DNA of 39,123 bases. Origin: Candidatus Aenigmatarchaeota archaeon (GTDB lineage Archaea; Aenigmatarchaeota; Aenigmatarchaeia; Aenigmatarchaeales; Aenigmatarchaeaceae). The notes under the pieces were generated by a model that worked only from the letters and a program-made list of their open reading frames with translations, did no database searches and had not been told where the DNA came from. Both the position numbers and the translations under genes were made by a program. Where the stretch lies: positions 1-39,123 of the forward strand of contig JAAOXY010000082.1 of assembly GCA_018221065.1 (NCBI GenBank), in the 5' to 3' direction. Positions 169-15,626 of the stretch are shown here, one piece after another (within the stretch, counting starts at the first letter, position 1; each line of letters begins with the position of its first letter).

Positions 169-336
169 ATGGACGAAAAGGATTGTAGTGGGTGTAATTA
201 TAGAAAGATTGCCGTACAATGTTACAAGTCTATAGATAAAAACTGTCCATGTGCTATATGTATTGTTAAAACAATGTGCTCTGAATCATGTAATGTATGG
301 CATCAATGGTATATAAATAGAGAGAGGAGACCCTAA
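169..336 (+). CDS. small Cys-rich protein, CxGC..CPCxxCxVKxMC family (55 aa)
   Basis: Hand-translated ORF below track cutoff: ATG 169, TAA 334-336. MDEKDCSGCNYRKIAVQCYKSIDKNCPCAICIVKTMCSESCNVWHQWY.. Stop abuts the ATG of the next paralog. Confidence 0.6.
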   Translation: MDEKDCSGCNYRKIAVQCYKSIDKNCPCAICIVKTMCSESCNVWHQWYINRERRP

Positions 337-521
337 TGGATGAAAACTGTGATGGATGTATATGGAACTATGATGGATCACTGTGTGTAAAGTGGCAGGA
401 TGGAAACTGTCCATGTGGGAGATGTGTCGTTAAACCGATGTGCCAGGATCCATGTGACACATGGGGATTATGGTATACAATAGAACATGCAAAAAAACAA
501 AGAAAGGATGGGTGGATATAA
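336..521 (+). CDS. small Cys-rich protein, same family (61 aa)
   Basis: ORF track. MDENCDGC..GNCPCGRCVVKPMCQDPCDTWGLWY carries the full motif. Confidence 0.7.
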   Translation: MDENCDGCIWNYDGSLCVKWQDGNCPCGRCVVKPMCQDPCDTWGLWYTIEHAKKQRKDGWI

Positions 522-522
522 A

Positions 523-681
523 ATGGTAGACTTAGATTATAACAAGTTCTATGAAGAAATACATAATAAGAAACATGCTAACATAACAAAACATGAGCTA
601 AGGGAAGCTATTCGTTGGCCTGTTGAGACATCTCCCGAAGAAGAGGATGTCTCTGATGAGGATATAAACAGTGGATGTTAA
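523..681 (+). CDS. hypothetical acidic protein (52 aa)
   Basis: In-frame ATG 523 immediately after the upstream TAA (519-521). Purine-rich GGATGGGTGG upstream. The longer track ORF from 487 overlaps the upstream gene. Confidence 0.5.
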   Translation: MVDLDYNKFYEEIHNKKHANITKHELREAIRWPVETSPEEEDVSDEDINSGC

Positions 682-1021
682 AACAAGGCTAGTTGATTTC
701 AGTAATAACATATTAGAAGAATATGATATTGACTTGAGTAATAGACCAGTAAGCCCATGTAATGAATGTCTGGTATCTATTATGTGTAAAAAACTATGTC
801 CTGATGTAACCAATTATCTATTTGATTATGAGACATATGATAGAGCCTTAGAAAAAACTCTTATACAATGTGCAACTAACTATCCTCTAAATATGGAAAT
901 ATTTGAACTGAGGTCTCATAGGAAGGGGGAATATAAAAAGTGGGTAGTGCGAACATATAGGGGAAGGATACAAAGCTTTAAAGAGAGGAATAAAGATGAC
1001 AAGTCATCAACTGGTCGATAG
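671..1021 (+). CDS. hypothetical protein with C-half motif PCNECLVSIMC
   Basis: GTG start 671 with GAGGA 8 nt upstream. Contains only the PCxxC-x-V-x2-MC half of the family signature. Confidence 0.55.
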   Translation: MDVKTRLVDFSNNILEEYDIDLSNRPVSPCNECLVSIMCKKLCPDVTNYLFDYETYDRALEKTLIQCATNYPLNMEIFELRSHRKGEYKKWVVRTYRGRIQSFKERNKDDKSSTGR

Positions 1022-1286
1022 TCCATGTAGTATATGTATAGTTCGAACTATGTGTGATAATATATGTCTAGAGGGAACAATATATCTAATTGAACATGAA
1101 GTGGCTGATGAACCAATGCAACGGGTTTTAATACGTGGATGTGATCCTAAGTATAAATCAGACACGATTACAATAAATTCAAACCATAATGGTCAATTCA
1201 GGACATTCAAAATGGAAATTAGAGAGGGTCAAATAACATCTTTCATGCTAACAACTAGAGATCCATTCGATTTAAGGAAGGAATGA
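996..1286 (+). CDS. hypothetical protein with C-half motif PCSICIVRTMC
   Basis: ORF track. ATG 996 preceded by GAGAGGAA. C-terminal architecture parallels 671..1021 (..R.G.I.SF..). Confidence 0.6.
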   Translation: MTSHQLVDSPCSICIVRTMCDNICLEGTIYLIEHEVADEPMQRVLIRGCDPKYKSDTITINSNHNGQFRTFKMEIREGQITSFMLTTRDPFDLRKE

Positions 1287-1290
1287 ATCC

Positions 1291-1332
1291 AAAAAAAAGA
1301 GATAGGGAGACTAGTCCTATTCTCTTTTTTTG
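1291..1332. terminator. bidirectional intrinsic terminator between convergent genes
   Basis: A-run, then AGAGATAGG ... CCTATTCTCT hairpin, then T-run. Lies between the + gene ending 1286 and the - gene ending 1394. Confidence 0.65.
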
Positions 1333-1393
1333 AGCTGTCCCGATGATAGACCTTGGACATTGCGTTTGCTCAGGTTGCCAACTCTTTATTAAT

Positions 1394-1762
1394 CTATACC
1401 GCTGGGCCGCCGATCACCTCTCGTTCATTATCTGGGAGACTTCCTATTTTCAAGCCTTTTGGGAACACCCGACTAAGTACTTGAATACCATACTCATCAA
1501 GGTCATCCCCACGAAGTGCTGCGTTAAGGATATTACTAATCTGCTGAATAACTTGAAATCTAGACTTCATATCCAACAGAAGCTTTTCTTTTGGAACTAC
1601 AGTGTGAAGGCCACCATACTTCGGATGGCTTTTGGGAAATTTCACCTGAGCCATATCACTGTCCGGCTCAATATCAGTATCCACATATAACTTTGTTCCC
1701 TCCGGGATAATAATCCCAGAACTTCTTACCGCTGTACTCTCTCTAAGATATGCTATTTCCAT
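1394..1762 (-). CDS. hypothetical protein (122 aa)
   Basis: ORF track. GGTGGAGGTG RBS upstream of ATG 1762. Confidence 0.7.
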   Translation of the reverse strand: MEIAYLRESTAVRSSGIIIPEGTKLYVDTDIEPDSDMAQVKFPKSHPKYGGLHTVVPKEKLLLDMKSRFQVIQQISNILNAALRGDDLDEYGIQVLSRVFPKGLKIGSLPDNEREVIGGPAV

Positions 1763-1766
1763 AGTA

Positions 1767-1937
1767 TTACACCTCCACCTTTAGATTTTGTATTCTCCAA
1801 TATGTGTTTTCGATCAGTTCTTCCTGGTAAACTTCGGTTTGATAACTGCTATCAAGTTCCTCAATCACTTTGAAGAACACATACGAAGCAGCTAAGAATA
1901 ACCAGCCAATGATTATAAGCACGATTGTTTTTTTCAT
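1767..1937 (-). CDS. small membrane protein (56 aa)
   Basis: Hand-translated: MKKTIVLIIIGWLFLAASYVFFKV.. 57 codons with no internal stop. GGGGGATAAATACT precedes the ATG. Confidence 0.5.
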   Translation of the reverse strand: MKKTIVLIIIGWLFLAASYVFFKVIEELDSSYQTEVYQEELIENTYWRIQNLKVEV

Positions 1938-1942
1938 AGTAT

Positions 1943-2155
1943 TTATCCCCCATATTTAAAGTCTTCTACCATTTCATAGATGATGAGATATAACCTGAAC
2001 ACTGCAAAGAGTATCCACACAACACCAACTATCACTCCAATAAGAGAGAACATAATCCAAACCGGATCCGCAAACATAAATCGAACCAAGTTTATAGATA
2101 CTAGCAGGGTTACAGATACATATAGAGCGACTTTCATGAAATTAAAGAAATTCAT
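1943..2155 (-). CDS. membrane protein (70 aa, 2 predicted TM)
   Basis: ORF track. GGAGGTG RBS. Hydrophobic segments. Confidence 0.65.
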   Translation of the reverse strand: MNFFNFMKVALYVSVTLLVSINLVRFMFADPVWIMFSLIGVIVGVVWILFAVFRLYLIIYEMVEDFKYGG

Positions 2156-2191
2156 TTTTTCACCTCCCTATAGAGTTTTTATATAGACCGT

Positions 2192-2449
2192 TTATGATGC
2201 GAGTCCCATAGGAACTCTTCCCTTATATGCCTTTAATGTAATCAGTGGAGAGACCGTTATACCACCTTCCATAAGCTTCTCCACAATCGGTCTATAGGGA
2301 ACCAATATATCGTCGAATATATGACCGCATATATCGCACTTTGTATATTCGCCCCTGATGGTTAATGCAAGACCCTTTGTAGGACTCTTATGGGGCATGT
2401 CAATAGACTTACATCTGTTACATTTGATTGAAAATGGTAAGTATGCCAT
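2192..2449 (-). CDS. zinc-ribbon-like protein (85 aa)
   Basis: ORF track. CNRC ... CDIC pairs. GGAGGGATATACACT precedes the ATG. Promoter cassette 50 nt upstream. Confidence 0.65.
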   Translation of the reverse strand: MAYLPFSIKCNRCKSIDMPHKSPTKGLALTIRGEYTKCDICGHIFDDILVPYRPIVEKLMEGGITVSPLITLKAYKGRVPMGLAS

Positions 2450-2498
2450 AGTGTATATCCCTCCTTAATTGACTAAGAATTGTTTGTCTTTATTACAT

Positions 2499-2518
2499 AT
2501 TAATATATATAAGGAATT
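2499..2518 (-). promoter_or_regulatory. early promoter-like cassette core (variant ATTAATATATATAAGGAATT)
   Basis: Member of the repeated core motif family, 50 nt upstream of ATG 2449. Confidence 0.45.
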
Positions 2519-2829
2519 GATCTATATGGTCTATTGGATACTGTCCAGGGCACTAATCCGACTGTTTTTTTGGATCATTCGACACTCAGGATGGGGGTTT
2601 GCTCCAACCGACTAGGAACGGTATTTGTTCGTTTGGGATAGGGTCATTAGATAGTTAGCGGGACTGTGAGCAGGGTTTTGCTCGAGATTTAAAGCGATTC
2701 AAATACCAGGGACAAGAAAAGACATAGGGTTTCTTAATCGGGATTTGTGGTTTAGGATGGAGATGTAACCTGTTCTAAAATTTTCATCTCAAAAGAGATA
2801 TGGTAATTTAGAATGGATGTCTAAAATTT

Positions 2830-3024
2830 TTACAATATTTTTTTTCTTATTCTTTCCTTAATGATAGGTGTCCAATACTTATATTTTATAGGGCAATAAT
2901 GATTACCTTTACACATTATTTTAACAAGACACTTCCCGCATGGGCACCCTTCAGAAGTAATTCCAGATCTCATACAATATGAACTGGGATAATTTTGACT
3001 ACAACCAATACAACTATCTAACAT
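2830..3024 (-). CDS. small Cys-rich protein, CxGC..CPCxxCxVKxMC family (64 aa)
   Basis: ORF track. MLDSCIGC..EGCPCGKCLVKIMC. GGAGGTGTG RBS. Confidence 0.7.
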   Translation of the reverse strand: MLDSCIGCSQNYPSSYCMRSGITSEGCPCGKCLVKIMCKGNHYCPIKYKYWTPIIKERIRKKIL

Positions 3025-3057
3025 TTAAACACACCTCCAAAATTTTTTAAAAAAATT

Positions 3058-3076
3058 TTACCATATATAGGGATTT
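3058..3076 (-). promoter_or_regulatory. degenerate promoter-like core (CCATATATAGGGATT)
   Basis: Partial match to the cassette core, about 35 nt upstream of ATG 3024. Confidence 0.3.
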
Positions 3077-3077
3077 A

Positions 3078-3119
3078 CAGAGACATCTAACTGAGTGGTA
3101 GATGTCTCTGCTAACTATC
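3078..3119 (-). terminator. conserved terminator module (GAGACATC hairpin plus TGCTAACTAT)
   Basis: CAGAGACATC 3078-3087 pairs with GATGTCTCTG 3101-3110, followed by CTAACTAT. The same module recurs five or more times. Confidence 0.55.
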
Positions 3120-3126
3120 CCATATA

Positions 3127-3159
3127 TCTCCCGGTCGCGCTTTGCGGGGCCTGTCGAGA
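3127..3159. repeat. GC-rich hairpin element, copy 1
   Basis: TCTC-CCGGTCGCGCTTTGCGGGGCCTGTC-GAGA. Starts 12 nt below the stop of 3171..3410. Near-identical copies at 4884 and 6356. Confidence 0.6.
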
Positions 3160-3170
3160 ATGTCCCTTTA

Positions 3171-3410
3171 TTAATCGTTGATATCAAAAGCAGTGTTATA
3201 ACATTGAATGGCTTTGATCCAGTCTTCTCCGGCGTAGATAATATTGTTGAGATCATATGAATCATTGATATAAACAACATACACAATGACAGGAATGGAT
3301 GGCATCGCCGTTGCATGGAAATATTTTGTTCCTCTCTTATCTATATCTGATGCTATCACATGACTAAATGAAAAAGTTTGTAGATCTAATATGTCTAATG
3401 TGTGTTTCAT
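3171..3410 (-). CDS. hypothetical protein (79 aa), paralog of 9011..9220
   Basis: ORF track. GGAGGAGGG RBS. Shares HV[IL]AS and IY[AS]G.D..KA...YN with 9011..9220. Confidence 0.65.
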   Translation of the reverse strand: MKHTLDILDLQTFSFSHVIASDIDKRGTKYFHATAMPSIPVIVYVVYINDSYDLNNIIYAGEDWIKAIQCYNTAFDIND

Positions 3411-3440
3411 GATATCCCTCCTCCTATAGGATTATTTTTT

Positions 3441-3459
3441 GGAATAATAAGTTTATTCC
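3441..3459 (-). promoter_or_regulatory. 5' leader hairpin GGAATAA-N5-TTATTCC
   Basis: Inverted repeat between the promoter core and the RBS. About 40 nt of the leader is conserved with 5661-5701. Confidence 0.4.
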
Positions 3460-3467
3460 TTTTGTAT

Positions 3468-3490
3468 CATTAATTAATATATATAGAATT
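3468..3490 (-). promoter_or_regulatory. early promoter-like cassette core
   Basis: CATTAATTAATATATATAGAATT, 58 nt upstream of ATG 3410. Confidence 0.5.
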
Positions 3491-3541
3491 AGCAACCAAA
3501 AATAACGGTGCCGCCGGCAGCTAATTATCTCGGACAAAAAA

Positions 3542-3580
3542 AGAGACACCCAACAAATGTTAGATGTCTCTGCTAACTAA
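3542..3580 (-). terminator. conserved terminator module
   Basis: A-run, AGAGACAC ... GATGTCTCT, then GCTAACTA. The TAG stop of 3577..3867 lies inside CTAACTA. Confidence 0.5.
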
Positions 3581-3867
3581 GTGCTAAATGTGTCTATATC
3601 CTCTCTATCAAAATAGTAATCATCTCCATTATCTTCAATCCATGAAGGTATCATAGAATGATACCAATCTGACCACTCCTTACAACTACATCTAGGAATC
3701 ATTTTAACTATACAATTCACACAAATGCATTGCCCCTCATTATGCTCAACACATGACAAATATCTCTTTTCTTTTAGCGATGCATAGATTCTACAACCAT
3801 TACAGTGTTCATTATCTGTAGTAACTTTAATATAAAGATTATTCTTTTTTCTAATCATAGATAACAT
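3577..3867 (-). CDS. Cys-rich protein, extended family member (96 aa)
   Basis: ORF track. ..HCNGC..GQCICVNCIVKMIPRCSCKEWSDWY (CIC in place of CPC). Confidence 0.65.
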   Translation of the reverse strand: MLSMIRKKNNLYIKVTTDNEHCNGCRIYASLKEKRYLSCVEHNEGQCICVNCIVKMIPRCSCKEWSDWYHSMIPSWIEDNGDDYYFDREDIDTFST

Positions 3868-3875
3868 TTTTACTT

Positions 3876-4049
3876 TTACTCTCTTTCTTTTCTTTTCTCC
3901 TCTATTTTACCCTTAGTTTCGTCCAATAAGTTCTCTCCGTCTATTACGAGTTTTGAGACAAATTCAGAAAAGCCACCAGCTTTCTCACATTTTTGAATTG
4001 TTACAACTAACAATATGATAAATACTATGATAAGTATTGTTTTAAACAT
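3876..4049 (-). CDS. small membrane protein (57 aa)
   Basis: In-frame ATG 4049 with GGAGGATAATA RBS. The longer track start at 4085 would sit inside the terminator hairpin. Confidence 0.6.
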   Translation of the reverse strand: MFKTILIIVFIILLVVTIQKCEKAGGFSEFVSKLVIDGENLLDETKGKIEEKRKERE

Positions 4050-4071
4050 TATTATCCTCCTTTCTAAAAAA

Positions 4072-4114
4072 AGAGACAACCCCATAATGGCTAGATGTCT
4101 CTGCTCACTAACTG
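4072..4114 (-). terminator. conserved terminator module
   Basis: A-run, AGAGACA ... TGTCTCT, then GCTCACTAACTG. Directly below the stop of 4115..4438. Confidence 0.5.
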
Positions 4115-4438
4115 TTAACTATATTCCCTCATTGCCACCTGAATGGTCCAGGGTGTATCAACAGCAAACCCTGCCCTATCCAATTTCAAAACTCCTTCAG
4201 TCCCAAAATCATAGTGCCCGAAATGAGGTTCAAGTTTCGCTAACTTCATGTAGTTTTGACATGTACGAAGACTTATATCGAAGGTCTCTTTCACAAAAGT
4301 TTGCCAATTTCCATGACCTACATCCTCTTTCAATTCAAGAAGTTGTTCTCCAATTCTGACAGCACGATCTACATTTCCCTCATTTGAAGTCATCATACAA
4401 GTTTGAATCTCCCTGCTTATTTCAGGTGCTTTACGCAT
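4115..4438 (-). CDS. hypothetical protein, DUF3102-like (107 aa)
   Basis: ORF track. GHGNWQTFVKETFDISLRTCQNYMKLAKL resembles the GxGxW...S.RTA..YM.LA signature. This is recalled from memory, not searched. Confidence 0.65.
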   Translation of the reverse strand: MRKAPEISREIQTCMMTSNEGNVDRAVRIGEQLLELKEDVGHGNWQTFVKETFDISLRTCQNYMKLAKLEPHFGHYDFGTEGVLKLDRAGFAVDTPWTIQVAMREYS

Positions 4439-4475
4439 AGTAATACCTCCTTATAAAATAAGATTTATGTTTATT

Positions 4476-4498
4476 AGTAATTAATATATATAGGGATT
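4476..4498 (-). promoter_or_regulatory. early promoter-like cassette core
   Basis: AGTAATTAATATATATAGGGATT, 38 nt upstream of ATG 4438. Confidence 0.5.
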
Positions 4499-4549
4499 CC
4501 ATCTAAAAATAACGGTGCCACAAGGCATTTATTACATGGGTTAATCATA

Positions 4550-4624
4550 TTAGGTATCTTCTTCTTTATAAGCAAGATGAATACAATTATCTTCTCCTAT
4601 AAAGCATCCCTCACAGTTATCCAT
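4550..4624 (-). pseudogene. N-terminal fragment of the Cys-rich family (24 codons)
   Basis: MDNCEGCFIGEDNCIHLAYKEEDT*. Keeps the CxGC knuckle but lacks the CPC half. Its ATG overlaps the stop of 4617..4790. Confidence 0.35.
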
Positions 4625-4790
4625 AAGACTCACTCTCCCATTTATTCCATGGATCGCATCCCACTCGGCACATAGTTTTAACTAGACAGTAAGTACATGG
4701 GCAGTCTCCATTTGAATTTCGATCTCGAGTTTGTTTAAAACAACCAATAACACATCCTATACAGTTATCTATACAGTTATCTACACTCAT
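4617..4790 (-). CDS. small Cys-rich protein, family member (57 aa)
   Basis: Hand-translated: MSVDNCIDNCIGCVIGCFKQTRDRNSNGDCPCTYCLVKTMCRVGCDPWNKW.. 58 codons. GGAGGAG lies 9 nt upstream. Confidence 0.6.
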   Translation of the reverse strand: MSVDNCIDNCIGCVIGCFKQTRDRNSNGDCPCTYCLVKTMCRVGCDPWNKWESESYG

Positions 4791-4883
4791 GTTCCATGGC
4801 TCCTCCAGCTTATGATTATTTACCTCCTTTATTTAAAAAAAGAGACGGGGCTGGCGTGCTCACACCCCCCGATCTCTTTTCTC

Positions 4884-4919
4884 ATCCTCCGGTCGCGCTA
4901 TGCGGGGCCTGTCGAGGAT
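4884..4919. repeat. GC-rich hairpin element, copy 2
   Basis: ATCCTC-CGGTCGCGCTATGCGGGGCCTGTC-GAGGAT with a perfect 6-bp outer stem. Sits inside what looks like an interrupted terminator module (AAAAAAAGAGAC ... CTCTGCTAACTATC). Confidence 0.6.
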
Positions 4920-4943
4920 ACCTCTGCTAACTATCATAATGTA

Positions 4944-5651: not shown

Positions 5652-5678
5652 AGTAACCCCTCCTATAGGATTGTTTTG

Positions 5679-5697
5679 GGAATAATAAGATTATTCC
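5679..5697 (-). promoter_or_regulatory. leader or attenuator hairpin GGAATAA-N5-TTATTCC, copy 2
   Basis: Same inverted repeat and flanks as 3441-3459. Overlaps the stop of 5691..5843. Confidence 0.4.
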
Positions 5698-5843: not shown

Positions 5844-6103
5844 AATTCATTCCTCCTTTCTAATATCCTCTCGGCTAATAATGACGCTCTTCATATTTAT
5901 TAAAGATCTATATCTCTATAGATTTTTATGCAAACCCAGTTACCAATCTATCAAACTCGCACGATTTAAACTTCAATTAATATGAAAAGCTGTTCCAATT
6001 ATTATTATCCTCTTTTTTCCTTTGAGTCTGCCTCCTCCGGAAGCCTTACCAGGTAATCAAGAAGTAATAATCAAAACAGTCATTATTAGCAGACAGAATA
6101 TTA

Positions 6104-6146
6104 GTAGAGACATCCAACTGAGTGTTAGATGTCTCTACTAACTATC
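6104..6146 (-). terminator. conserved terminator module
   Basis: GTAGAGACATC 6104-6114 pairs with GATGTCTCTAC 6128-6138, followed by TAACTATC. Confidence 0.55.
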
Positions 6147-6594: not shown

Positions 6595-6616
6595 AGTAAT
6601 TAATATATATAGAATT
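6595..6616 (-). promoter_or_regulatory. early promoter-like cassette core
   Basis: AGTAATTAATATATATAGAATT. Confidence 0.5.
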
Positions 6617-6658: not shown

Positions 6659-6943
6659 TTAAATATCTTGATCTTTCACATCTCCTTTTTTTAAGCAATG
6701 TTTTTGGACACTATAAGGGGGATCCAACTTAAATTCTGCTCTAATACTATTCACAACACTTCTTACTCTGTTAGCTCCAGAATCTTTAGACCCCTTTGGG
6801 CGCTTACTATTTTTAGTAAAGTAATCACATATTATAGAACAATGAACCTGGCTTAATATTGGAGCAACACCTCTATTGTTACTATGTACCATAGCATTAC
6901 ATATAGCAAATGTTATACAGTCTTTACATGGAATTTTACTCAT
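6659..6943 (-). CDS. Cys-containing protein, PCKxCIxxAIC subfamily (94 aa)
   Basis: ORF track. MSKIPCKDCITFAICNA.. parallels 8597..8806. Confidence 0.7.
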   Translation of the reverse strand: MSKIPCKDCITFAICNAMVHSNNRGVAPILSQVHCSIICDYFTKNSKRPKGSKDSGANRVRSVVNSIRAEFKLDPPYSVQKHCLKKGDVKDQDI

Positions 6944-7267: not shown

Positions 7268-7291
7268 TAATTTATCCTCCTTTTAAAAAAA

Positions 7292-7321
7292 AGAGACATC
7301 CCTTAACTGGGAGATGTCTCT
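7292..7321 (-). terminator. terminator hairpin (AGAGACATC / GATGTCTCT)
   Basis: A-run followed by a 9-bp stem. Lies between 7338..7874 and 7061..7267. Confidence 0.55.
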
Positions 7322-7337
7322 CTATAAATCAAAGATC

Positions 7338-8559: not shown

Positions 8560-8581
8560 AGTAATTAATATATATAGAATA
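8560..8581 (-). promoter_or_regulatory. early promoter-like cassette core
   Basis: AGTAATTAATATATATAGAATA. Confidence 0.5.
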
Positions 8582-8596: not shown

Positions 8597-8806
8597 CTAT
8601 CCGACCCGACCATAAACTGGTGGCAAACCAAAGAATCTTCGAGCATTATCAATTGTATCCAAACTATTAGAGTCTATATATTCAAGCAATAGAGAACAAT
8701 CCTTAGACCGTGCTAGATTGGTCACATCCTCAAAAGGGAAAGTACCGATTAAACTTTTACATATAGCTAATACTATACAATTTTTACATGGGACATCAGT
8801 CATCAT
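8597..8806 (-). CDS. Cys-containing protein, PCKxCIxxAIC subfamily (69 aa)
   Basis: ORF track. MMTDVPCKNCIVLAICKS.. Confidence 0.7.
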   Translation of the reverse strand: MMTDVPCKNCIVLAICKSLIGTFPFEDVTNLARSKDCSLLLEYIDSNSLDTIDNARRFFGLPPVYGRVG

Positions 8807-9797: not shown

Positions 9798-9819
9798 AAT
9801 AATTAATATATATAGAATT
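9798..9819 (-). promoter_or_regulatory. early promoter-like cassette core
   Basis: AATAATTAATATATATAGAATT, 44 nt upstream of ATG 9754. Confidence 0.5.
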
Positions 9820-9890: not shown

Positions 9891-10124
9891 CTAGCTTTCT
9901 ATCCGTCTCCGGCATTCAGTTGCGATGGTTTCCACATTCTGAAAGGCATGATACCAACCTGTTACCATAATTGCAAGACTCACAATTCCAAATACCCAAT
10001 AGAACCAAGGCATTGAACCCATCACTTCATAATAATGAAAGATGTTCCATGATAACCAGACACCAATTGAAAACACTATCCAAAACCCAAACGCTTCTTT
10101 CACATTTCTTCTTAAGTCTTTCAT
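9891..10124 (-). CDS. membrane protein (77 aa)
   Basis: ORF track. GGAGG RBS. Two hydrophobic segments. Confidence 0.7.
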   Translation of the reverse strand: MKDLRRNVKEAFGFWIVFSIGVWLSWNIFHYYEVMGSMPWFYWVFGIVSLAIMVTGWYHAFQNVETIATECRRRIES

Positions 10125-10167
10125 AGTGTAACCTCCTATTAAAATAAGTGTTGTATAACTCCTTTAT

Positions 10168-10191
10168 CATTCATTAATATATATAGTAATT
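10168..10191 (-). promoter_or_regulatory. early promoter-like cassette core
   Basis: CATTCATTAATATATATAGTAATT, 44 nt upstream of ATG 10124. Confidence 0.5.
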
Positions 10192-10216
10192 ATTTCTTTC
10201 TTGGGTAAAATGGGTA

Positions 10217-10403
10217 TCAAGGATGCTTTTCTATAATTTCATCAAAATATTTCTGTCTTATTTGACATTCAAAAAATTTTTTACACATAGCTTTAACTAC
10301 ACAAATACCACATAGGACATTTTCCATTATTCAATCCTTCTAAATCACACCCTTTTAAAATCCAGAAATAGTACCCACAACCAGTACAATGTTTATTTTC
10401 CAT
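10217..10403 (-). pseudogene. frameshifted Cys-rich family member
   Basis: MENKHCTGCGYYFWILKGCDLEGLNNGKCP, then one extra base (TGT CCT A TGT), then CGICVVKAMCKKFFECQIRQKYFDEIIEKHP*. Frame 0 stops at 10293-10295. Span is 187 nt (3n+1). Confidence 0.5.
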
Positions 10404-10413
10404 CTTCCTCCTT

Positions 10414-10455
10414 AAAAAAAAGAGATCAGGCCATAAGGACTCCAATCTCTTTTTA
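10414..10455 (-). terminator. intrinsic terminator
   Basis: A-run, AGAGAT ... ATCTCT, T-run. Confidence 0.5.
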
Positions 10456-10537
10456 TCGCAACCTCAAGAAAGGTCCGTTGACTTGGGACCTGCCACAAGC
10501 CAGTTCTGCCACCAAATCAGAAGTATGCGAATTTCAT

Positions 10538-10708
10538 TTAATGAAATGTGAAATTTTCAAATTCCATTCCCAAAAGTTCAAGAGGCATATCTTCATCTAT
10601 GAGCGTTTCAGCTAGGCGTTTATTCTCTAACCATTCTTTTATCACTGGACACATATCACGGCATTCATGTCTACCGGGACATATAGCACAAGGACTATTT
10701 GGATCCAT
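10538..10708 (-). CDS. small Cys-containing protein (56 aa), C-half-like motif PCAIC..C..MC
   Basis: Hand-translated, 57 codons. GGAGGTAATTCGA RBS. Promoter core 40 nt upstream. Preferred over the antisense track ORF 10548..10730. Confidence 0.55.
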   Translation of the reverse strand: MDPNSPCAICPGRHECRDMCPVIKEWLENKRLAETLIDEDMPLELLGMEFENFTFH

Positions 10709-10747
10709 TCGAATTACCTCCTTAAAATAATTAAGATTTTGTTTATT

Positions 10748-10769
10748 AGAAATTAATATATATAGAATT
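10748..10769 (-). promoter_or_regulatory. early promoter-like cassette core
   Basis: AGAAATTAATATATATAGAATT. Confidence 0.5.
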
Positions 10770-10775
10770 AAGAAC

Positions 10776-10943
10776 TTAACTTAATTTTTTAGATTGGTTT
10801 TTATACCACTCATCCCAACTTTCACATCCATAATCACACATCATTTTAACAAGACAATTCGTACATGGACATGAACCATCTTGAATTTTATAACACCTTA
10901 TAGCTATTGTTTTATATGAGCACCCATCACATTTATTCCTCAT
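10776..10943 (-). CDS. small Cys-rich protein, family member (55 aa)
   Basis: Hand-translated: MRNKCDGCSYKTIAIRCYKIQDGSCPCTNCLVKMMCDYGCESWDEWY.. Confidence 0.6.
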   Translation of the reverse strand: MRNKCDGCSYKTIAIRCYKIQDGSCPCTNCLVKMMCDYGCESWDEWYKNQSKKLS

Positions 10944-11112
10944 TATCTATATCCCACTTATCATGATCATCACATATATTGTAGCACATCGGTTTAACGA
11001 CACATATCCCACATGGACAGTTTCCATCATCATTATAATAATTAGAACATACATTGCCTTTAGCGTAACACCCATCGCAATAATTATGATTTATTTCTTT
11101 ATAAGGATTCAT
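10933..11112 (-). CDS. small Cys-rich protein, family member (59 aa)
   Basis: Hand-translated codon by codon: MNPYKEINHNYCDGCYAKGNVCSNYYNDDGNCPCGICVVKPMCYNICDDHDKW.. Confidence 0.6.
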   Translation of the reverse strand: MNPYKEINHNYCDGCYAKGNVCSNYYNDDGNCPCGICVVKPMCYNICDDHDKWDIDNEE

Positions 11113-11295
11113 ATTTAAGATCCTCTTTAAATAAACGCCATTCCCTCCATTTATAGCACCAATCCTGACACATCATTTTTACAATGCATTTGGAGCATGG
11201 ACATGAACCTTCTAGATTAAATTCTCTTACAGAATAACAAGCTCCAATATGGGAGTCACCGGACAACCTTGACAGTTTGGACGATCACCACCCAT
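11099..11295 (-). pseudogene. frameshifted Cys-rich family member
   Basis: MGGDRPNCQGC in frame 0 (stop at 11227-11229). The rest, GDSHIGACYSVREFNLEGSCPCSKCIVKMMCQDWCYKWREW.., is in another frame. Span is 197 nt (3n+2). Confidence 0.5.
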
Positions 11296-11554
11296 AAGAG
11301 TTGGAAAGAAAAGCGGGCTCTACTACAGCCTTTTTTTCTTTATATGTTGGGAGTTTATTCCATGCTTCATATGCTTCTTTGTCACCTCCATGATAAAACA
11401 TATAACTTGCATCACACACGACTTCAATGACATGCTCTTTCGGCATTACTGGAGGTTGCCCATTATCCTCTAAGGCCCTTAAAGAATCACCGCCAATATA
11501 ATCCCATGTTCTTAAAGCCATATTTTGTATTCTTGTTTTCATTCTCTCATCCAT
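11285..11554 (-). CDS. hypothetical protein (89 aa)
   Basis: ORF track. Overlapping-gene operon. Confidence 0.75.
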   Translation of the reverse strand: MDERMKTRIQNMALRTWDYIGGDSLRALEDNGQPPVMPKEHVIEVVCDASYMFYHGGDKEAYEAWNKLPTYKEKKAVVEPAFLSNSYGW

Positions 11555-11804
11555 CTTTTTCCTCCATATTCAAATGTTTTTTAATCTCATCTAAATCATC
11601 TTGAATGTGTATGAGTCTTTCTGTTTTATTAGATTGTTTCCTATGTTGAAGTATATCATCTAAAACTTCTGCTTCTTTTCTACCTGAGACAAATTCCCAG
11701 ATGTAATGACCATATTCAGAAATTAGATGAACAATAACCAAAATTGATAGTATGGCATCCCAATATTTCCATGCCATTAGTGATTGCATTAGATCAAGCA
11801 TCAT
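11547..11804 (-). CDS. hypothetical protein with N-terminal TM (85 aa)
   Basis: ORF track. Confidence 0.7.
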   Translation of the reverse strand: MMLDLMQSLMAWKYWDAILSILVIVHLISEYGHYIWEFVSGRKEAEVLDDILQHRKQSNKTERLIHIQDDLDEIKKHLNMEEKDG

Positions 11805-12114
11805 CTATCTCCTTTTCAACTGTTGGTCTTTCCCCATATGCGTCTAGATCTTTTGGAGCGTCAAATAATAAACTCATTTCTAATGCGCCTCTAATTTGGT
11901 TAAGAAAAAGCGTTTTACACATTGTCCATTCATAGTTTGCAACGCATCTTCCATTTCCGTTTTTAGACCACTCTCCTTCTTTAATTCCATTCTCCCGCAT
12001 AATATTATAAAACTTTTCTTTTAAAGTTTTTATCATTCGTTTGTTTACGGGCATTTTAATAATGTCTTCTGCTACTTTCCTCATCTTTAAATTTCGTTTA
12101 TCATTTTGATTCAT
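11794..12114 (-). CDS. hypothetical protein (106 aa)
   Basis: ORF track. ATGA overlap with the upstream frameshifted ORF. Confidence 0.75.
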   Translation of the reverse strand: MNQNDKRNLKMRKVAEDIIKMPVNKRMIKTLKEKFYNIMRENGIKEGEWSKNGNGRCVANYEWTMCKTLFLNQIRGALEMSLLFDAPKDLDAYGERPTVEKEIDDA

Positions 12115-12309
12115 TTATTATCTCCCTTATATATTCCTTGGGGGTATTGTCTGTTATACCAATCGCTCCATTTGTCACATACCTTTTCATCGTTACACAT
12201 TGGTTTAACCACACATGAAGTACATGGGCAGCCCCCCATTAATATTAATATCATTTTCTGCCTCGCATACCATTGATCCACATCCTATACAATGCCCATT
12301 TTTATTCAT
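12111..12309 (-). pseudogene. frameshifted or split Cys-rich family member
   Basis: MNKNGHCIGCGSMVCEAENDININGG, then a +1 shift at a G6 run (plus-strand CCCCCC 12232-12237), then CPCTSCVVKPMCNDEKVCDKWSDWY..*. An internal ATG at 12239 could start a 42-aa C-half ORF. Span is 199 nt (3n+1). Confidence 0.5.
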
Positions 12310-12314
12310 AGTCT

Positions 12315-12506
12315 CTAAACTCCTTCTATAAATATTTTTTGGTGAACCCATTCCTCTTCCCTATCACAAGTACAATAATGAGGCATCATTTTAACTATAC
12401 ATGTCATGCATGGGCAGCTTTCATCGCTGTTTAATATTGTGCTACATGGCAAAGAGTAGCAGTTTGGGTAATGGCTGCACCCTTTACAATATGGATTTTT
12501 ACTCAT
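12315..12506 (-). CDS. small Cys-rich protein, family member (63 aa)
   Basis: In-frame ATG 12506 (MSKNPYCKGC..ESCPCMTCIVKMMPHYCTC). Overlaps the ligase stop by 8 nt. The longer track start at 12581 lies inside the ligase gene. Confidence 0.65.
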   Translation of the reverse strand: MSKNPYCKGCSHYPNCYSLPCSTILNSDESCPCMTCIVKMMPHYCTCDREEEWVHQKIFIEGV

Positions 12507-13677
12507 AATCTCTAACTGCTTCAGCTTCAGCTGGGACTCCAACTGGTTGAAGTGGAACTCCATCTTCAGATAGTTCTGCATACCTGACAGTTAACATTGA
12601 ACCAATATCATTTGGAAGATTTAGAAGCATTGCTTTACGATCTTCGACTGTGCCTCTTGGCCTGGCATCAAACTCTATTCCTGTTTTGCTAATGCATCTA
12701 TATATGATACATCCCTCATCAGTTCCGGTACCTTCTTTTCCACCAACTATTTCAAACTCATCATCTTGATATGCTTTTACTTTTTCAAGATCATCTGAGT
12801 TATATTGAAATAGATATATTCCGTTTACATTCTTTAACATGGCTCCTTCAAAACCATTTTGAACACAATCATCGTGATATGCTTTTGCTTCAGCGTAGTT
12901 ATGAACTATCTTGCTTGGGGAAAATTTAATAGGACATATCATATCAGAATGATTTAACTCTAGTTTTGTTACTTCTTTCATAATCCATTTTATTCTTTCT
13001 TCAAATGTAGGTCCAATCCAAGCAATATCATATAACCAGTATTCTAAAAGGTGTTGATCTGGTTTTATTTTTTTGGTATATGATCCAATCTTTTGAAGAC
13101 TCCATCCATGAACATATAATTCTCCATGTACTGGAGCTGGAGCCTTAAGTTCTTTCAACCACGAATCAAGATGGGCAAGAGTGTTAAATAAATGACCACC
13201 TCTTGAATGATGAATCATTTGAAAATGTTCTACATCGATTTCAGCCAAATTACAAATGCCATTGAACTTCGGTTGAATATATGCGGGATATACAATCTTT
13301 CCTTTACCAACTCCCTTTGCGAGCTGAGGTAGCATGAGTCTTGGTTCATACTTAGGACCAACATTAGCAGAGCCATTTTTATTAACCTGGGGGTCGAGTA
13401 AGCCCAAATCAAACTCATAGTTGGCAGCTCTCTTAACTGTCAGCTGTGATTCAATTTGAGATTTAGCTTGCTCAAATGGAGTTGTTTCATTTGCTTTTCC
13501 AATATTCTTTCCCTTCTTTATTAGCTTTGGCATTGGTCGAATCTTCTGACCAACATAACCAGACTCAACAATAATAGATGCCGTATGGTTATCATGTTCT
13601 ACAACTTTCGCTTGCCATTGTTTCAATTTCCCTGTTCTACTTACTCCGAATAGTGCTGGAAGTTCTACGTTTTGCAT
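12499..13677 (-). CDS. lig: ATP-dependent DNA ligase (392 aa)
   Basis: ORF track. Nucleotidyltransferase motifs: PKFNG (KxDG-type motif I), EGAMLK (motif IV), LEKVK (motif V). Confidence 0.88.
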   Translation of the reverse strand: MQNVELPALFGVSRTGKLKQWQAKVVEHDNHTASIIVESGYVGQKIRPMPKLIKKGKNIGKANETTPFEQAKSQIESQLTVKRAANYEFDLGLLDPQVNKNGSANVGPKYEPRLMLPQLAKGVGKGKIVYPAYIQPKFNGICNLAEIDVEHFQMIHHSRGGHLFNTLAHLDSWLKELKAPAPVHGELYVHGWSLQKIGSYTKKIKPDQHLLEYWLYDIAWIGPTFEERIKWIMKEVTKLELNHSDMICPIKFSPSKIVHNYAEAKAYHDDCVQNGFEGAMLKNVNGIYLFQYNSDDLEKVKAYQDDEFEIVGGKEGTGTDEGCIIYRCISKTGIEFDARPRGTVEDRKAMLLNLPNDIGSMLTVRYAELSEDGVPLQPVGVPAEAEAVRDYE

Positions 13678-13877
13678 TATATTTCTTTTCCTTTCATTTC
13701 TTTATATCTTTGTCTCCATGCATAATTCCAGTATATCCATTTTGTGCAATCATCTTCTTTATCATGTTTACACATTACTTTAACAATGCAATTATGACAC
13801 GGGCATGAACCATTAATTCCATAGCATACATGAAAGCATGTTTTCTCTACTGAACACCCTCTACAGTTTGTCATCAT
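13677..13877 (-). CDS. small Cys-rich protein, family member (66 aa)
   Basis: ORF track. MMTNCRGC..GSCPCHNCIVKVMC. Stop overlaps the ligase ATG. Confidence 0.75.
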   Translation of the reverse strand: MMTNCRGCSVEKTCFHVCYGINGSCPCHNCIVKVMCKHDKEDDCTKWIYWNYAWRQRYKEMKGKEI

Positions 13878-13881
13878 TTTA

Positions 13882-14070
13882 TTAGTCTTTTAGGTATTCA
13901 TATTCAAGATCATCAGGCTGTTTTCCATATTGCATCTTCATTGTTTCTATTTTACTCTCTGCTGCTTTGGGCAGAGCGAATCCTCCCACAATGCCTTTAC
14001 CATGACAATTCCACCTTGGATCTAATTTAGATTCTAACCACCATGATCCTTCTTTCATACTCATATACAT
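13882..14070 (-). CDS. hypothetical protein (62 aa)
   Basis: ORF track. GGAGA upstream. The in-frame ATG at 14064 has better spacing and may be the true start. Confidence 0.6.
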   Translation of the reverse strand: MYMSMKEGSWWLESKLDPRWNCHGKGIVGGFALPKAAESKIETMKMQYGKQPDDLEYEYLKD

Positions 14071-14118
14071 TCTCCTTTCAGAATAATTATTTTGATTTGC
14101 ATGTCTTCCCTCCTTAAG

Positions 14119-14152
14119 AAAAAAATAGTGCCCCTAAAAATTCGGGGCACTA
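14119..14152 (-). terminator. intrinsic terminator
   Basis: AGTGCCCC ... GGGGCACT 8-bp stem, with a T-run on the minus strand. Below the stop of 14158..14343. Confidence 0.65.
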
Positions 14153-14157
14153 CTTGA

Positions 14158-14343
14158 TTAAAAACTATATTCCATTGCAAGTTCGAGTTCCTTAAGCACT
14201 TGTTCATGAACTGTATCTGGAAGACGTTGACCTGTTTCAAGATCGATGACTTCAAAGATTGATAAGGCTTGTTCAACTTTTGAAAACCAAACCCCATATC
14301 CACAACCGTCGATATAAACATTTTTTGTCATTAGACTTTTCAT
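14158..14343 (-). CDS. hypothetical protein (61 aa)
   Basis: ORF track. GGAGGTAGTACT RBS. Confidence 0.6.
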   Translation of the reverse strand: MKSLMTKNVYIDGCGYGVWFSKVEQALSIFEVIDLETGQRLPDTVHEQVLKELELAMEYSF

Positions 14344-14356
14344 AGTACTACCTCCA

Positions 14357-14623
14357 TCATCGCAGATTTTTGTGCATTATTAAAAGATGACTCCCAACTC
14401 TCTTTCTCAGCTTTGATCTTCTGTTTTGTATGGCAGCTACAGATCTTCCCAAACATCCATGGAGGTCACGATCTGATAGTTCTGATGTAATAATGAGAGC
14501 GTCTTCATCAGCAGTGTATAGTTGACATTTATTTATTGTTGGGTGGAACTGATCATAGTATTTCTTTTTACCTGCTTGCCATATATCCGGATGTTTTACC
14601 CTCCATCTTTTATTCGGTGTCAT
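14357..14623 (-). CDS. putative Myb/SANT-like helix-turn-helix protein (88 aa)
   Basis: ORF track. YTADEDALI...LGRSVAAIQNRRSKL resembles a Myb-like repeat. This is a weak, motif-level call only. Confidence 0.55.
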   Translation of the reverse strand: MTPNKRWRVKHPDIWQAGKKKYYDQFHPTINKCQLYTADEDALIITSELSDRDLHGCLGRSVAAIQNRRSKLRKRVGSHLLIMHKNLR

Positions 14624-14790
14624 TTTTTCACCTCCTTGGTTAGTGACTCTAAAAGTTGAAGACTGGCAACATTTGTATTGTATTTTTTTATCTTCTTTAA
14701 TCGTCTGGCTATTTTTCCACCAGGCCGAAAACGATAGTGATTCATACGTCTTTGATGTTTGAATTTTTTATTCCCGTCTCTTCTTGGCAT
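14620..14790 (-). CDS. highly basic small protein (56 aa)
   Basis: Hand-translated, 57 codons: MPRRDGNKKFKHQRRMNHYRFRPGGKIARRLKKIKKY.. GGAGGAGTTACA RBS. ATGA overlap with the next gene. Confidence 0.45.
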   Translation of the reverse strand: MPRRDGNKKFKHQRRMNHYRFRPGGKIARRLKKIKKYNTNVASLQLLESLTKEVKK

Positions 14791-14815
14791 TGTAACTCCT
14801 CCTTGTTTACAATGT

Positions 14816-15064
14816 TTATTCGGGTTTAATTATGGGGCCGATAACGTAATTCTTTATTTTGTCTAAAACTAAATTTACTTCTGCTGTATCTAAGTTTGAG
14901 GATGTTGCTTGAACATGAAAATTATTTCTATCAATTTTTTCGACGAGAATGACTATACCAGCATTAGGACCTTCAATTTTTTCAGCATCTTTTAACATCC
15001 CCTCTACTGTTTGAAATCTGGTGTCTCCGGTTTTATCATAAAGATCTATGATCTTTCTTGCCAT
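14816..15064 (-). CDS. hypothetical protein (82 aa)
   Basis: ORF track. GGAGGAATT RBS. Confidence 0.7.
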   Translation of the reverse strand: MARKIIDLYDKTGDTRFQTVEGMLKDAEKIEGPNAGIVILVEKIDRNNFHVQATSSNLDTAEVNLVLDKIKNYVIGPIIKPE

Positions 15065-15078
15065 AATTCCTCCTTTGT

Positions 15079-15104
15079 AAAAAAAGGGAATGCCTCAATT
15101 CCCC
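15079..15104 (-). terminator. intrinsic terminator
   Basis: GGGAAT ... ATTCCC stem, with a T-run on the minus strand. Confidence 0.5.
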
Positions 15105-15122
15105 TCTTCCTCTTGATTAGTA

Positions 15123-15317
15123 TTAAACTTTGATAAGCTCAACTTTGTCGCATATGTCATGAGCTAAATTATAAATACCATACCCAAGTAAGTGTGTTGC
15201 TGCTGCATTAAACTTTTCGTTCGCAAGATACACAGTTCCACAATCCATCTCATGAATATTTTCCGGATAGTAATCCCCTTCATCATTTTTCTTTAAGGAA
15301 ACCAATCTTAATATCAT
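15123..15317 (-). CDS. hypothetical protein (64 aa)
   Basis: ORF track. GGAGGTGTG RBS. Promoter core 50 nt upstream. Confidence 0.65.
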   Translation of the reverse strand: MILRLVSLKKNDEGDYYPENIHEMDCGTVYLANEKFNAAATHLLGYGIYNLAHDICDKVELIKV

Positions 15318-15366
15318 TCTTTCACACCTCCTTTCTAATTAAATTAGTAATGAATAACTTCTTACT

Positions 15367-15388
15367 ATTAATTAATATATATAGTATT
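15367..15388 (-). promoter_or_regulatory. early promoter-like cassette core
   Basis: ATTAATTAATATATATAGTATT. Confidence 0.5.
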
Positions 15389-15431
15389 CACATATAAAAG
15401 GAAGGAGTGGGGATAAAAAAAGGGAACATAG

Positions 15432-15626
15432 TTATCCCTTTTTTGGAAGGGAAGATTCGCAACCCCATTCGTAAGTTTTGAATTCTATACATTCTTCTGA
15501 ACACATAACTTTTACAACACAATTAGTACATGGACAAGAGGCGTTTATATTATAGTTGATATATTTACATCGAACGTCTCCACTCTCATAGGAATAGATT
15601 TTACAGCCTTCACAAAACTTATCCAA
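15432..15626 (-). CDS. small Cys-rich protein, family member (64 aa)
   Basis: ORF track. TTG start with AGGAG 7 nt upstream. MDKFCEGC..ASCPCTNCVVKVMC. Confidence 0.65.
   Translation of the reverse strand: MDKFCEGCKIYSYESGDVRCKYINYNINASCPCTNCVVKVMCSEECIEFKTYEWGCESSLPKKG

Follow-up and report, generated by a model that had tools for sequence, protein, structure and literature searches.

An undescribed, strictly metagenomic family of eight-cysteine mini-proteins carried in many copies by a probable tailed phage

Why should a genome of about 39 kb carry ten intact copies, and five disrupted ones, of a single tiny cysteine-rich gene? The question is raised by a contig of 39,123 nt deposited in a 'Candidatus Aenigmarchaeota archaeon' metagenome-assembled genome (MAG; GOV02_ locus tags), which we refer to, at its full length, as the window. 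Its early region holds a series of short open reading frames (ORFs) with the same spaced-cysteine signature. These ORFs are real genes of a previously undescribed family, built on an invariant eight-cysteine frame, absent from curated resources and unusual in copy number. As to their role, we tentatively favour, with a probability of about 0.4, a metal-stabilised eight-cysteine scaffold that would serve as a diversified early battery of host-binding/counter-defence proteins and be reshuffled via cassettes.

The window contains ten intact long copies, five disrupted long copies and five short forms (table 1). The ten intact loci listed in a first-pass annotation of the window are all present where it placed them, and every one carries the signature. 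Long forms measure 55-75 residues and follow the consensus M-x(2-5)-C-x-G-C-x(7-12)-C-x(6-10)-C-P-C-x2-C-[LIV]-V-K-x-M-C-x3-C-x2-W-x2-W. Across the family, the frame reads C1-x-G-C2…C3…C4-P-C5-x2-C6-[LIV]-[VI]-K-x-[MIV]-C7-x3-C8, after which comes a C-terminal helix rich in aromatic residues. Column conservation and entropy were computed on 507 unique full-length copies, 461 of which have all eight cysteines. Alignment columns C8, C11, C32, C34, C37, C43 and C47 are ~100% conserved and C21 reaches 93%; the proline between C4 and C5 (P33, 97%), a lysine (K40, 96%) and the glycine after C1 (G10, 90%) are also conserved. Additional conserved positions are the [LIV][VI]K after C6, a hydrophobic residue before C7 and two aromatics after C8. 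The remaining columns are close to maximal variability (entropy 3.2-4.2 bits), the loop from C2 to C4 ranges from 12 to 38 residues, and net charge per copy runs from -7 to +10. The C7-x3-C8 spacing, and hence the full C5-x2-C6-x5-C7-x3-C8 arrangement, is found in 404/465 copies.

Short forms keep the C-x2-C-x5-C core only. They place (C4-P-)C5-x2-C6-x5-C7…C8 at the extreme N-terminus and continue into unrelated C-terminal parts, some of which contain transmembrane helices. Profiles of the long and short forms align across the core (hhalign 87%, E 4e-6), and short forms are the commonest neighbours of long ones. Their own relatives are hypothetical metagenomic proteins only.

Could such short ORFs arise by chance? 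The core DNA motif (back-translated C-x-C-x2-C-[LIVMF]-V-K) has 12 matches in the window against 0.00 expected from 100 dinucleotide-preserving shuffles of it, and the family profile finds 15 significant domains, all within 1-16,000. A comparison with L010, a syntenic relative with 57-100% amino-acid identity across shared genes, adds evidence at the codon level. Orthologous family pairs have ratios of non-synonymous to synonymous substitution rates (dN/dS) of 0.12-0.57, which argues that the copies are translated and constrained by purifying selection. The diversifying selection suggested in the first-pass annotation is not demonstrated: these values fall in the same range as those of neighbouring genes (0 to 0.69), and with ratios below 1 no whole-gene positive selection is seen.

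The family matches nothing already characterised. We scanned Pfam, PHROGs, NCBIfam and PADLOC with the window copies and 133 family members, and obtained no match beyond isolated chance-level ones. In NCBIfam these were eight weak matches (E 0.035-0.065), each from one member and none from the ten window copies; three of the eight were to radical SAM/SPASM families. A sequence-profile search of the PDB at E<=10 returned a sole, spurious match to a Kelch/BTB protein (E 0.8), and Foldseek of the structural models found nothing in the PDB (two runs) or BFVD. A megablast of window positions 1-16,000 found nothing in 50,697 GenBank phage records. The initial impression that the signature is no named domain is borne out. 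For a prior description of the family, the literature gave only the analogous case of the Opia viruses.

Where, then, is the family found? When 1.84 billion representative proteins were searched exhaustively with a hidden Markov model, 1,954 clusters passed E<=1e-3 (33 at E<=1e-10), nearly all of 55-90 residues, with a few tandem two-domain proteins. The same cysteine frame runs throughout the 150 matches listed. A word-indexed homologue search returned 17-23 proteins, all hypothetical and none fused to a known domain. At the DNA level, the strict motif occurs among 185,579 species (one genome each) in one 37.7-kb contig only, binned in a Thermoplasmatales MAG; it occurs in two IMG/VR contigs, and a metagenome scan for the motif yielded at least 120 contigs. 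Altogether, profiles locate 723 domains in 132 loci, all in low-GC DNA (27-46%), with a median of 4 per locus, a maximum of 25 and up to 5 per kb. The unusual paralogy that first drew attention in the window is therefore a general property of the family. The family is strictly metagenomic and always multi-copy; within this lineage of uncultured sediment phages, the early region of every virus has 10-25 diverged copies. An 88.9-kb viral contig (L009, IMGVR_UViG_3300037468_000575) has at least 24 consecutive copies on one strand in ~7 kb (3800-10550), so the family is not restricted to the ~39-kb genome type.

The copies of one genome are not recent local duplicates. All ten intact window copies have their closest relative in another genome and not among their own paralogues, which indicates that the paralogue lineages are old and have been shuffled among genomes. 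The sets themselves differ between relatives as close as the window and L010, whose syntenic genes are mostly put at 70-95% amino-acid identity. About nine long copies of L010 have no counterpart in the window, L010 lacks the copy upstream of the DNA ligase, and three of the five disrupted window copies are intact in L010. Turnover of the repertoire thus involves gain, loss, frameshift and nonsense mutation.

The early region also has two kinds of repeated element. A promoter-like element (core TATATATATTAAT within TTCTATATATATTAATTA) occurs in 12 copies, all on the minus strand, between 2499 and 18782, and a repeated, G+C-rich, terminator-like hairpin family (AGAGACATCT…AGATGTCTCT) accompanies it. 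A family gene is the last gene before 8/9 promoter-like repeats from 15.4 to 2.5 kb. In L010, all six early repeats (6/6) lie 7-67 nt after a family gene, in some cases one without a window orthologue. A 126-residue Cys/His-rich, very basic protein with CFGC, CCNC and CCKC motifs is also encoded directly behind a promoter-like repeat (9374-9754, minus strand); it has no database match.

The tight physical association with these repeats, the highly variable copy content and the disruption of 5/15 long window copies (relaxed scan) could also be read as the marks of selfish or near-neutral filler, that is, small ORFs of no importance to the phage, carried along by the promoter cassettes and maintained through duplication. 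We regard this as very unlikely. Filler would not be expected to keep eight cysteines and the G, P and K strictly across ~2,000 clusters and 507 copies, to show the dN/dS values given above, to maintain paralogue lineages across genomes, or to retain start signals, with Shine-Dalgarno (SD) sequences before the starts.

How could a frame of eight cysteines surrounded by variable residues be put to use? In the reading that we favour, the eight thiolates would provide two four-ligand metal sites (two Zn ions, or Fe-S clusters) and so hold together a mini-protein whose size leaves no room for a hydrophobic core. Both the metal scaffold and its division into two four-cysteine sites are likely. The binding surfaces offered by such a scaffold would be variable loops and a variable helix. 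The set would be made early in infection and would act as specific binders/inhibitors of host proteins, for host takeover or counter-defence, with one target or target variant per paralogue. Recombination at the promoter/terminator cassettes and at the conserved core would reshuffle the repertoire, and in the short forms the C5-C8 module would be employed again, at the N-terminus of further small proteins of which some are membrane-anchored.

Several observations weigh against this proposal. Two AlphaFold2 models are of low confidence (predicted local distance difference test, pLDDT, 57.5 and 60.5), which leaves the two-site scaffold without structural support; a C-terminal helix is the one consistent element, and the second model adds two tiny predicted strands in what may be a weak beta-beta-alpha layout. 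No homologue was found in any cultured phage (tblastn of the family consensus at E<=1 against the same GenBank phage records), so no function can be transferred by homology. The role as an early host-binding/counter-defence repertoire is the best available inference, drawn only from position, size and evolutionary pattern. As to that pattern, dN/dS stays below 1 and does not exceed that of neighbouring early genes, and positive selection is not demonstrated. Old, conserved paralogue lineages would fit stable housekeeping roles equally well. Finally, the nature of the metal may be other than first supposed. The Zn knuckle initially suggested is not established, with only C1-x-G-C2 and C5-x2-C6 resembling CxxC pairs and no zinc-ribbon or knuckle match in Pfam or NCBIfam among the 133 members. 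The CX2CX5CX3C core, together with the recurrent C-x2-C-x5-C spacing of [4Fe-4S] proteins, makes Fe-S as plausible as Zn.

The charge of the copies bears on another possibility, namely that the proteins bind nucleic acids, either as zinc-finger-type transcription regulators of phage or host or as PacI/HNH-like homing nucleases. Basic copies make up 52%, many with K/R-rich tails, and the core has an invariant lysine. The two four-cysteine sets and the weak beta-beta-alpha model resemble the double-Zn proteins of Opia viruses (10.1101/2024.03.22.586370), and the insertion-like placement between conserved genes, as at the ligase flanks, recalls free-standing homing endonuclease genes. On the other hand, a clearly acidic net charge (<= -2, with a minimum of -7) is seen in 23% of copies, and this charge spread contradicts a uniform DNA-binding role. 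A nuclease in particular is unsupported, since the 507 copies have no conserved His, Asn, Asp, Arg or Tyr column that could form an HNH/PacI-type active site; the proteins have 55-65 residues against 142 in PacI, and there is neither a PDB profile match to PacI/HNH nor a Pfam HNH match. Overall, we consider a nucleic-acid-binding role quite unlikely.

A different kind of chemistry is hinted at by a few copies with an internal stop. In the window copy at 6157-6338, the sole defect is a TGA at 6262-6264, at the position of C4 (…FNDES-TGA-PCNICLMKVMRC…); the downstream frame and all conserved residues are retained. Stops inside otherwise complete domains number three among the 723, and all are TGA at C4: the one in the window and those of two metagenomic loci, L130 (2139, plus strand) and L057 (812, plus strand). 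Controls with TAA and TAG gave no internal stop among the 723 domains. All three copies show one mark of bacterial selenoproteins, an in-frame UGA where homologues have Cys, with the downstream frame conserved.

The L130 and L057 copies are ~70% identical and share the 33-codon downstream frame and its stop, with 8 synonymous and 6 non-synonymous differences in the downstream ORF. Over the first 36 nt past the TGA the two loci do not differ at all, that is, zero synonymous changes against ~42% elsewhere (changed codons among amino-acid-identical codons between the two loci; p ~0.003). These 36 nt can form a 12-bp hairpin (dG -9 to -10) with an apical AGUUA loop 17 nt after the UGA. In bacterial selenocysteine insertion sequence (SECIS) elements, the loop lies at the same distance of ~17 nt. 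An Rfam scan gave no SECIS match, and the hairpin rests on two sequences without covariation. From these sequence features, the L130 and L057 copies are candidate phage selenoproteins. The window copy is either a pseudogene or carries a selenocysteine (Sec) codon. Just 6 weak AU/GU pairs are found at the SECIS-like position, and its closest relatives have Cys at C4, so its TGA may be a plain nonsense mutation.

Other explanations of the internal stops fare poorly. TGA is an ordinary stop elsewhere, ending 262 of ~700 family ORFs, which rules out a global reassignment. ARAGORN calls a tRNA-Stop (anticodon tta) at 7902-7973 on the minus strand, with a C-A mismatch in the anticodon stem and C at position 37, and Rfam at E<=1 finds no tRNA there. 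The call is probably spurious, or else marks a very aberrant tRNA; it cannot account for the internal stops, given the odd anticodon stem-loop, the lack of an Rfam tRNA and a reading of UAA, not UGA. A pattern scan of IMG/VR for more copies with TGA at C4 gave chance matches only, and in the literature we found no report of a phage-encoded selenoprotein.

Selenocysteine normally marks a chemically active site, and the three candidate positions at C4 are one reason to consider that the family consists of redox or Fe-S proteins. These would hold one or two [4Fe-4S] clusters (mini-ferredoxin or SPASM-like) or a redox-active (seleno)thiol centre, and, instead of being passive binders, would rewire or sense host redox or Fe-S metabolism in anoxic sediment hosts. 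Clostridial 2x[4Fe-4S] ferredoxins have 55-65 residues with 8 Cys, C-x2-C-x5-C is a cluster spacing in WhiB, EndoIII and AddB-type proteins, and low AlphaFold confidence is common in cofactor-dependent folds. In addition, three of the eight weak NCBIfam matches were to radical SAM/SPASM families, and C5-C8 of the 404/465 copies noted above correspond to the CX2CX5CX3C half of the SPASM motif (PMC5715301). However, the first half of that motif (CX9-15GX4C) is absent, and the NCBIfam matches are at chance level, with the ten window copies contributing none. The PDB profile search at E<=10 gave no match to SPASM, ferredoxin, WhiB or EndoIII chains, Pfam gave none to SPASM or Fer4, and there was none to the radical SAM protein of the window. 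Moreover, one would expect a redox carrier to manage without 10-25 hypervariable paralogues that span charges of -7 to +10. A redox or Fe-S function is in our view unlikely. The same doubt attaches to a broader picture in which the family would be a combinatorial library of metallo-mini-proteins (Fe-S or Zn) on a new eight-cysteine fold, with 10-25 per genome and ~2,000 sequence clusters worldwide, programmable as inhibitors of host defence or takeover targets and reshuffled by cassettes, with C4 replaced by selenocysteine in some members.

The radical SAM protein just mentioned (25673-26605, plus strand) suggests one more role. The mini-proteins could be its substrates, that is, precursors of RiPPs (peptides that are ribosomally synthesised and modified post-translationally) with sactipeptide/ranthipeptide-like thioethers. 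The enzyme has a partial SPASM/twitch match and is weakly similar to the peptide modifiers SkfB and YydG, and some RiPP systems have multiple precursor genes with conserved and variable parts. Yet MoaA, DesII and cytosylglucuronate decarboxylase are equally similar, and no RiPP recognition element (RRE)/PqqD was detected in the enzyme. Its gene is on the opposite strand at a distance of 10-25 kb and belongs to a late sugar-modification cluster by the tail fibre. No homologue of it exists in the other 131 family loci (~0.5 Mb, including arrays of 10-14 kb), nor does any protein of at least 150 residues with CX3CX2C. The conserved part of the family is the central cysteine frame and a C-terminal aromatic helix, not a leader, and no NCBIfam RiPP-precursor model matched. 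An hhalign comparison of the family with the enzyme gave a probability of 0.1%. With a distant enzyme, no RRE, no co-occurrence and no leader/core architecture, we rejected the RiPP reading, which strikes us as extremely improbable.

The sugar cluster itself (20460-26605, plus strand) stands beside a collagen-like/CBM5_12 tail fibre (26662-27672). Its products are an 881-residue protein that ends in a GT1 domain, a PIG-L deacetylase (23291-23896), a hexapeptide acyltransferase (23884-24663), an uncharacterised 334-residue protein and the radical SAM enzyme, which is of the twitch type. A possible role of the cluster is glycan modification of the virion or of the cell surface.

Individual copies and repeats are collected in table 1, which amends some of the first-pass calls. 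The disrupted copies exist; those at 10217, 11099 and 12111 are frameshifts, and that at 6153 is not frameshifted, its single defect being the in-frame TGA. The ORF at 11099-11266 had been taken as merely N-truncated, but its NCQGC motif was found in another frame, which makes it a frameshift too. An N-terminal fragment at 4550 does exist and joins a PCNKCLV fragment as one decayed copy. Likewise, the relatives reduced to the C-terminal half at 671, 996 and 10538 were rightly seen, and the list was incomplete, missing the short forms at 6659-6943 and 8597-8806. Two copies flank the DNA ligase and stops overlap starts as had been described. One start was moved: the ORF at 12315-12581 overlaps the ligase and an ATG at 12506 follows 2 nt past the ligase stop, so this ATG is most likely the real start.

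Table 1. Copies of the family, promoter-like repeats and terminator-like hairpins in the window.
Feature	Position	Strand	Evidence or relatives
Intact long copy, 55 aa, 8 Cys	169..336	+	profile E 8e-16
Intact long copy, 61 aa; start overlaps stop of previous copy (TAATG)	336..521	+	orthologue P0005 77% identical
Short form: SPCNECLVSIMCKKLC core, then unrelated C-terminal domain	671..1021	+	profile E 7e-5
Short form: SPCSICIVRTMCDNIC core and C-terminal domain; paralogue of 671-1021	996..1286	+	profile E 2e-5
Intact long copy, 64 aa; final gene ahead of promoter repeat 2499-2511	2830..3024	-	signature, profile
Intact long copy, variant C7/C8 (KMIPRCSC); followed by terminator hairpin and promoter repeat	3577..3867	-	signature, profile
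Decayed copy: MDNCEGC… N-terminal fragment and PCNKCLV fragment in different frames	4477..4681	-	profile
Intact long copy, 57 aa	4617..4790	-	signature, profile
Long copy with good SD and ATG, single in-frame TGA (6262-6264) at Cys C4	6157..6338	-	relaxed scan
Short form with PCKDCITFAIC…C at its N-terminus; final gene ahead of promoter repeat 6599-6611	6659..6943	-	
Short form, PCKNCIVLAIC…C.LL..Y…RRFFGL subfamily; last gene before promoter repeat 8564-8576	8597..8806	-	
Frameshifted long copy	10220..10463	-	relaxed scan; intact L010 orthologue at 10542-10769
Short form (SPCAICPGRHECRDMC)	10538..10708	-	L010 orthologue 73% identical
Intact long copy, 55 aa; stop 12 nt before repeat 10752-10764	10776..10943	-	L010 orthologue 93% identical
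Intact long copy, 59 aa, very acidic (net -7); overlaps neighbours	10933..11112	-	
Frameshifted long copy; NCQGC in other frame at 11230-11319	11102..11319	-	intact L010 orthologue 9581-9817
Frameshifted long copy	12114..12360	-	intact relatives P0074 and L010 8896-9069
Intact long copy, 63 aa, variant C7/C8, directly downstream of DNA ligase	12315..12506	-	
Intact long copy directly upstream of DNA ligase, stop/start overlap	13677..13877	-	absent there in L010
Intact long copy, TTG start; last before repeat 15371-15383	15432..15626	-	orthologues L010, P0044 76-86% identical
Promoter-like repeat core	2499..2511	-	
Promoter-like repeat core	3473..3485	-	
Promoter-like repeat core	4480..4492	-	
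Promoter-like repeat core	6599..6611	-	
Promoter-like repeat core	8564..8576	-	
Promoter-like repeat core	9802..9814	-	
Promoter-like repeat core	10173..10185	-	
Promoter-like repeat core	10752..10764	-	
Promoter-like repeat core	15371..15383	-	
Terminator-like hairpin	3079..3119	-	
Terminator-like hairpin, just after copy 3577-3867	3542..3571	-	
Terminator-like hairpin	4072..4112	-	
Terminator-like hairpin, just after TGA-containing copy	6100..6142	-	
Terminator-like hairpin	7290..7323	-	

Which organism would these proteins act in? The host is probably bacterial, as indicated by strong AGGAGG Shine-Dalgarno sites in the window, a bacterial prepilin, a protein like gp53 of phage Syn5 and the SECIS-like hairpin of L130/L057. 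The prepilin is a type IV pilin/pseudopilin-like protein (16721-17194, minus strand) with the N-terminus G|FTLIELIIVIAIIGTLAAIAIPQF and a weak ComP_DUS match; L010 additionally encodes a PilX_N-like protein. The prepilin, the gp53-like protein, the tail fibre, an HNH endonuclease, the ligase and the SD sites together mark the window as a tailed bacteriophage, so its placement in an Aenigmarchaeota bin, like that of the related 37.7-kb contig in a Thermoplasmatales bin, is probably a mis-binning.

Among the other genes on the plus strand, a 454-residue protein (31871-33235) shares 45% identity with gp53, a structural protein of Synechococcus phage Syn5, and has a further match in Maribacter phage Panino; the HNH endonuclease gene follows at 33257-33823. 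For a probable large terminase of 537 residues (30005-31618), no more than a 29% match was obtained, to 'Virus Rctr197k' of a methane-oxidising enrichment. At 17720-18322 stands a gene that is unusual for a phage and among the most conserved ones, with 95.5% identity in L010; it encodes a SET-domain (lysine methyltransferase-like) protein.

If our favoured reading of the mini-proteins as a metal-stabilised, host-directed battery is right, the family would be among the largest single-family small-protein expansions in phage genomes and a natural library of ~2,000 variants of tiny metal-stabilised binders. Such a library is of interest for new host-takeover/anti-defence mechanisms and as a protein-engineering scaffold. 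The promoter-linked layout offers a testable model of how accessory genes are reshuffled in phages. The Sec members, if genuine, would be the first phage-encoded selenoproteins; Sec recoding would then reach into phages, the phage would depend on the Sec machinery of its host, and the host group could be narrowed down. In addition, a 39-kb phage contig and a related one of 37.7 kb are filed under archaeal MAGs, probably through binning errors.

How does the family compare with known systems? In the SPASM motif, CX9-15GX4C-Xn-CX2CX5CX3C-Xn-C binds auxiliary [4Fe-4S] clusters (PMC5715301). The spacing of C5-C8 is the same, and the number of cysteines would suit two four-ligand sites. Unlike SPASM proteins, family members are free-standing, with no radical SAM fusion and no upstream half of the motif; their N-terminal half is a C-x-G-C…C with a 12-38-residue loop, and PDB, Pfam, NCBIfam and hhalign comparisons give no profile similarity. 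We therefore do not count the family among SPASM proteins, for all that the spacing agrees.

WhiB-like (Wbl) proteins, [4Fe-4S] proteins of Actinobacteria and actinophages, are small (~80-120 residues) and combine C-Xn-C-X2-C-X5-C with an aromatic/Trp segment and, in many cases, a basic tail; those encoded by phages work through binding to host proteins (a sigma factor). The C3/C4…C5-x2-C6-x5-C7 of the present family is likewise invariant. In contrast to Wbl proteins, its consensus has no G[VI]WGG turn, there is no Pfam Whib or PDB Wbl match, its elements are low-GC (29-40%) and not high-GC actinobacterial, it has eight and not four cysteines, and it is massively multi-copy. Membership was rejected here as well, with the spacing shared and the turn, the Pfam match and the actinobacterial context missing. 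The AcrID1 family of Sulfolobales viruses is an expanded paralogous anti-defence family whose members are not Cys-rich metal binders. There, too, one genome holds many diverged paralogues of one small protein, with content that varies between strains; the two families have no sequence or structural relation.

A closer parallel in genome type comes from the Opia viruses of Atabeyarchaeia (~40 kb), which carry combinatorial double-Zn Cys-rich proteins in a hypervariable region, with a proposed nuclease (PacI/HNH-like) role (bioRxiv 10.1101/2024.03.22.586370). Both are ~40-kb tailed-virus genomes from anoxic soil/sediment metagenomes, both have consecutive small Cys-rich genes with two four-Cys sets, and in both the gene combinations vary among closely related genotypes. 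However, Opia proteins reach 197 residues, with at most six per genome, against 55-75 residues and 10-25 per genome here. The present family has no conserved catalytic residue and no HNH or PacI similarity, which by the description of the Opia proteins sets it apart. In addition, PCNA, ParB and Com were not among the scanned window proteins, and the window carries a bacterial-type pilin.

For the arrangement of the genes, the best counterpart lies in T4-type phages, where promoter early stem-loop (PeSL) cassettes mediate modular shuffling of small early ORFs (PMC2839356, PMC4122927). Here as there, small variable ORFs of uncharacterised role are flanked by repeated motifs of early-promoter and stem-loop type, at which insertions, deletions or replacements distinguish close relatives. 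In the window, repeats that are putative promoters and hairpins flank family genes, and the content between them differs from that of L010. The PeSL parallel thus offers a candidate mechanism for copy turnover. Neither in promoter sequence nor in phage lineage is there a relation to T4-type phages, and whereas the ORFs shuffled in T4 are mutually unrelated, the present cassettes are dominated by one family.

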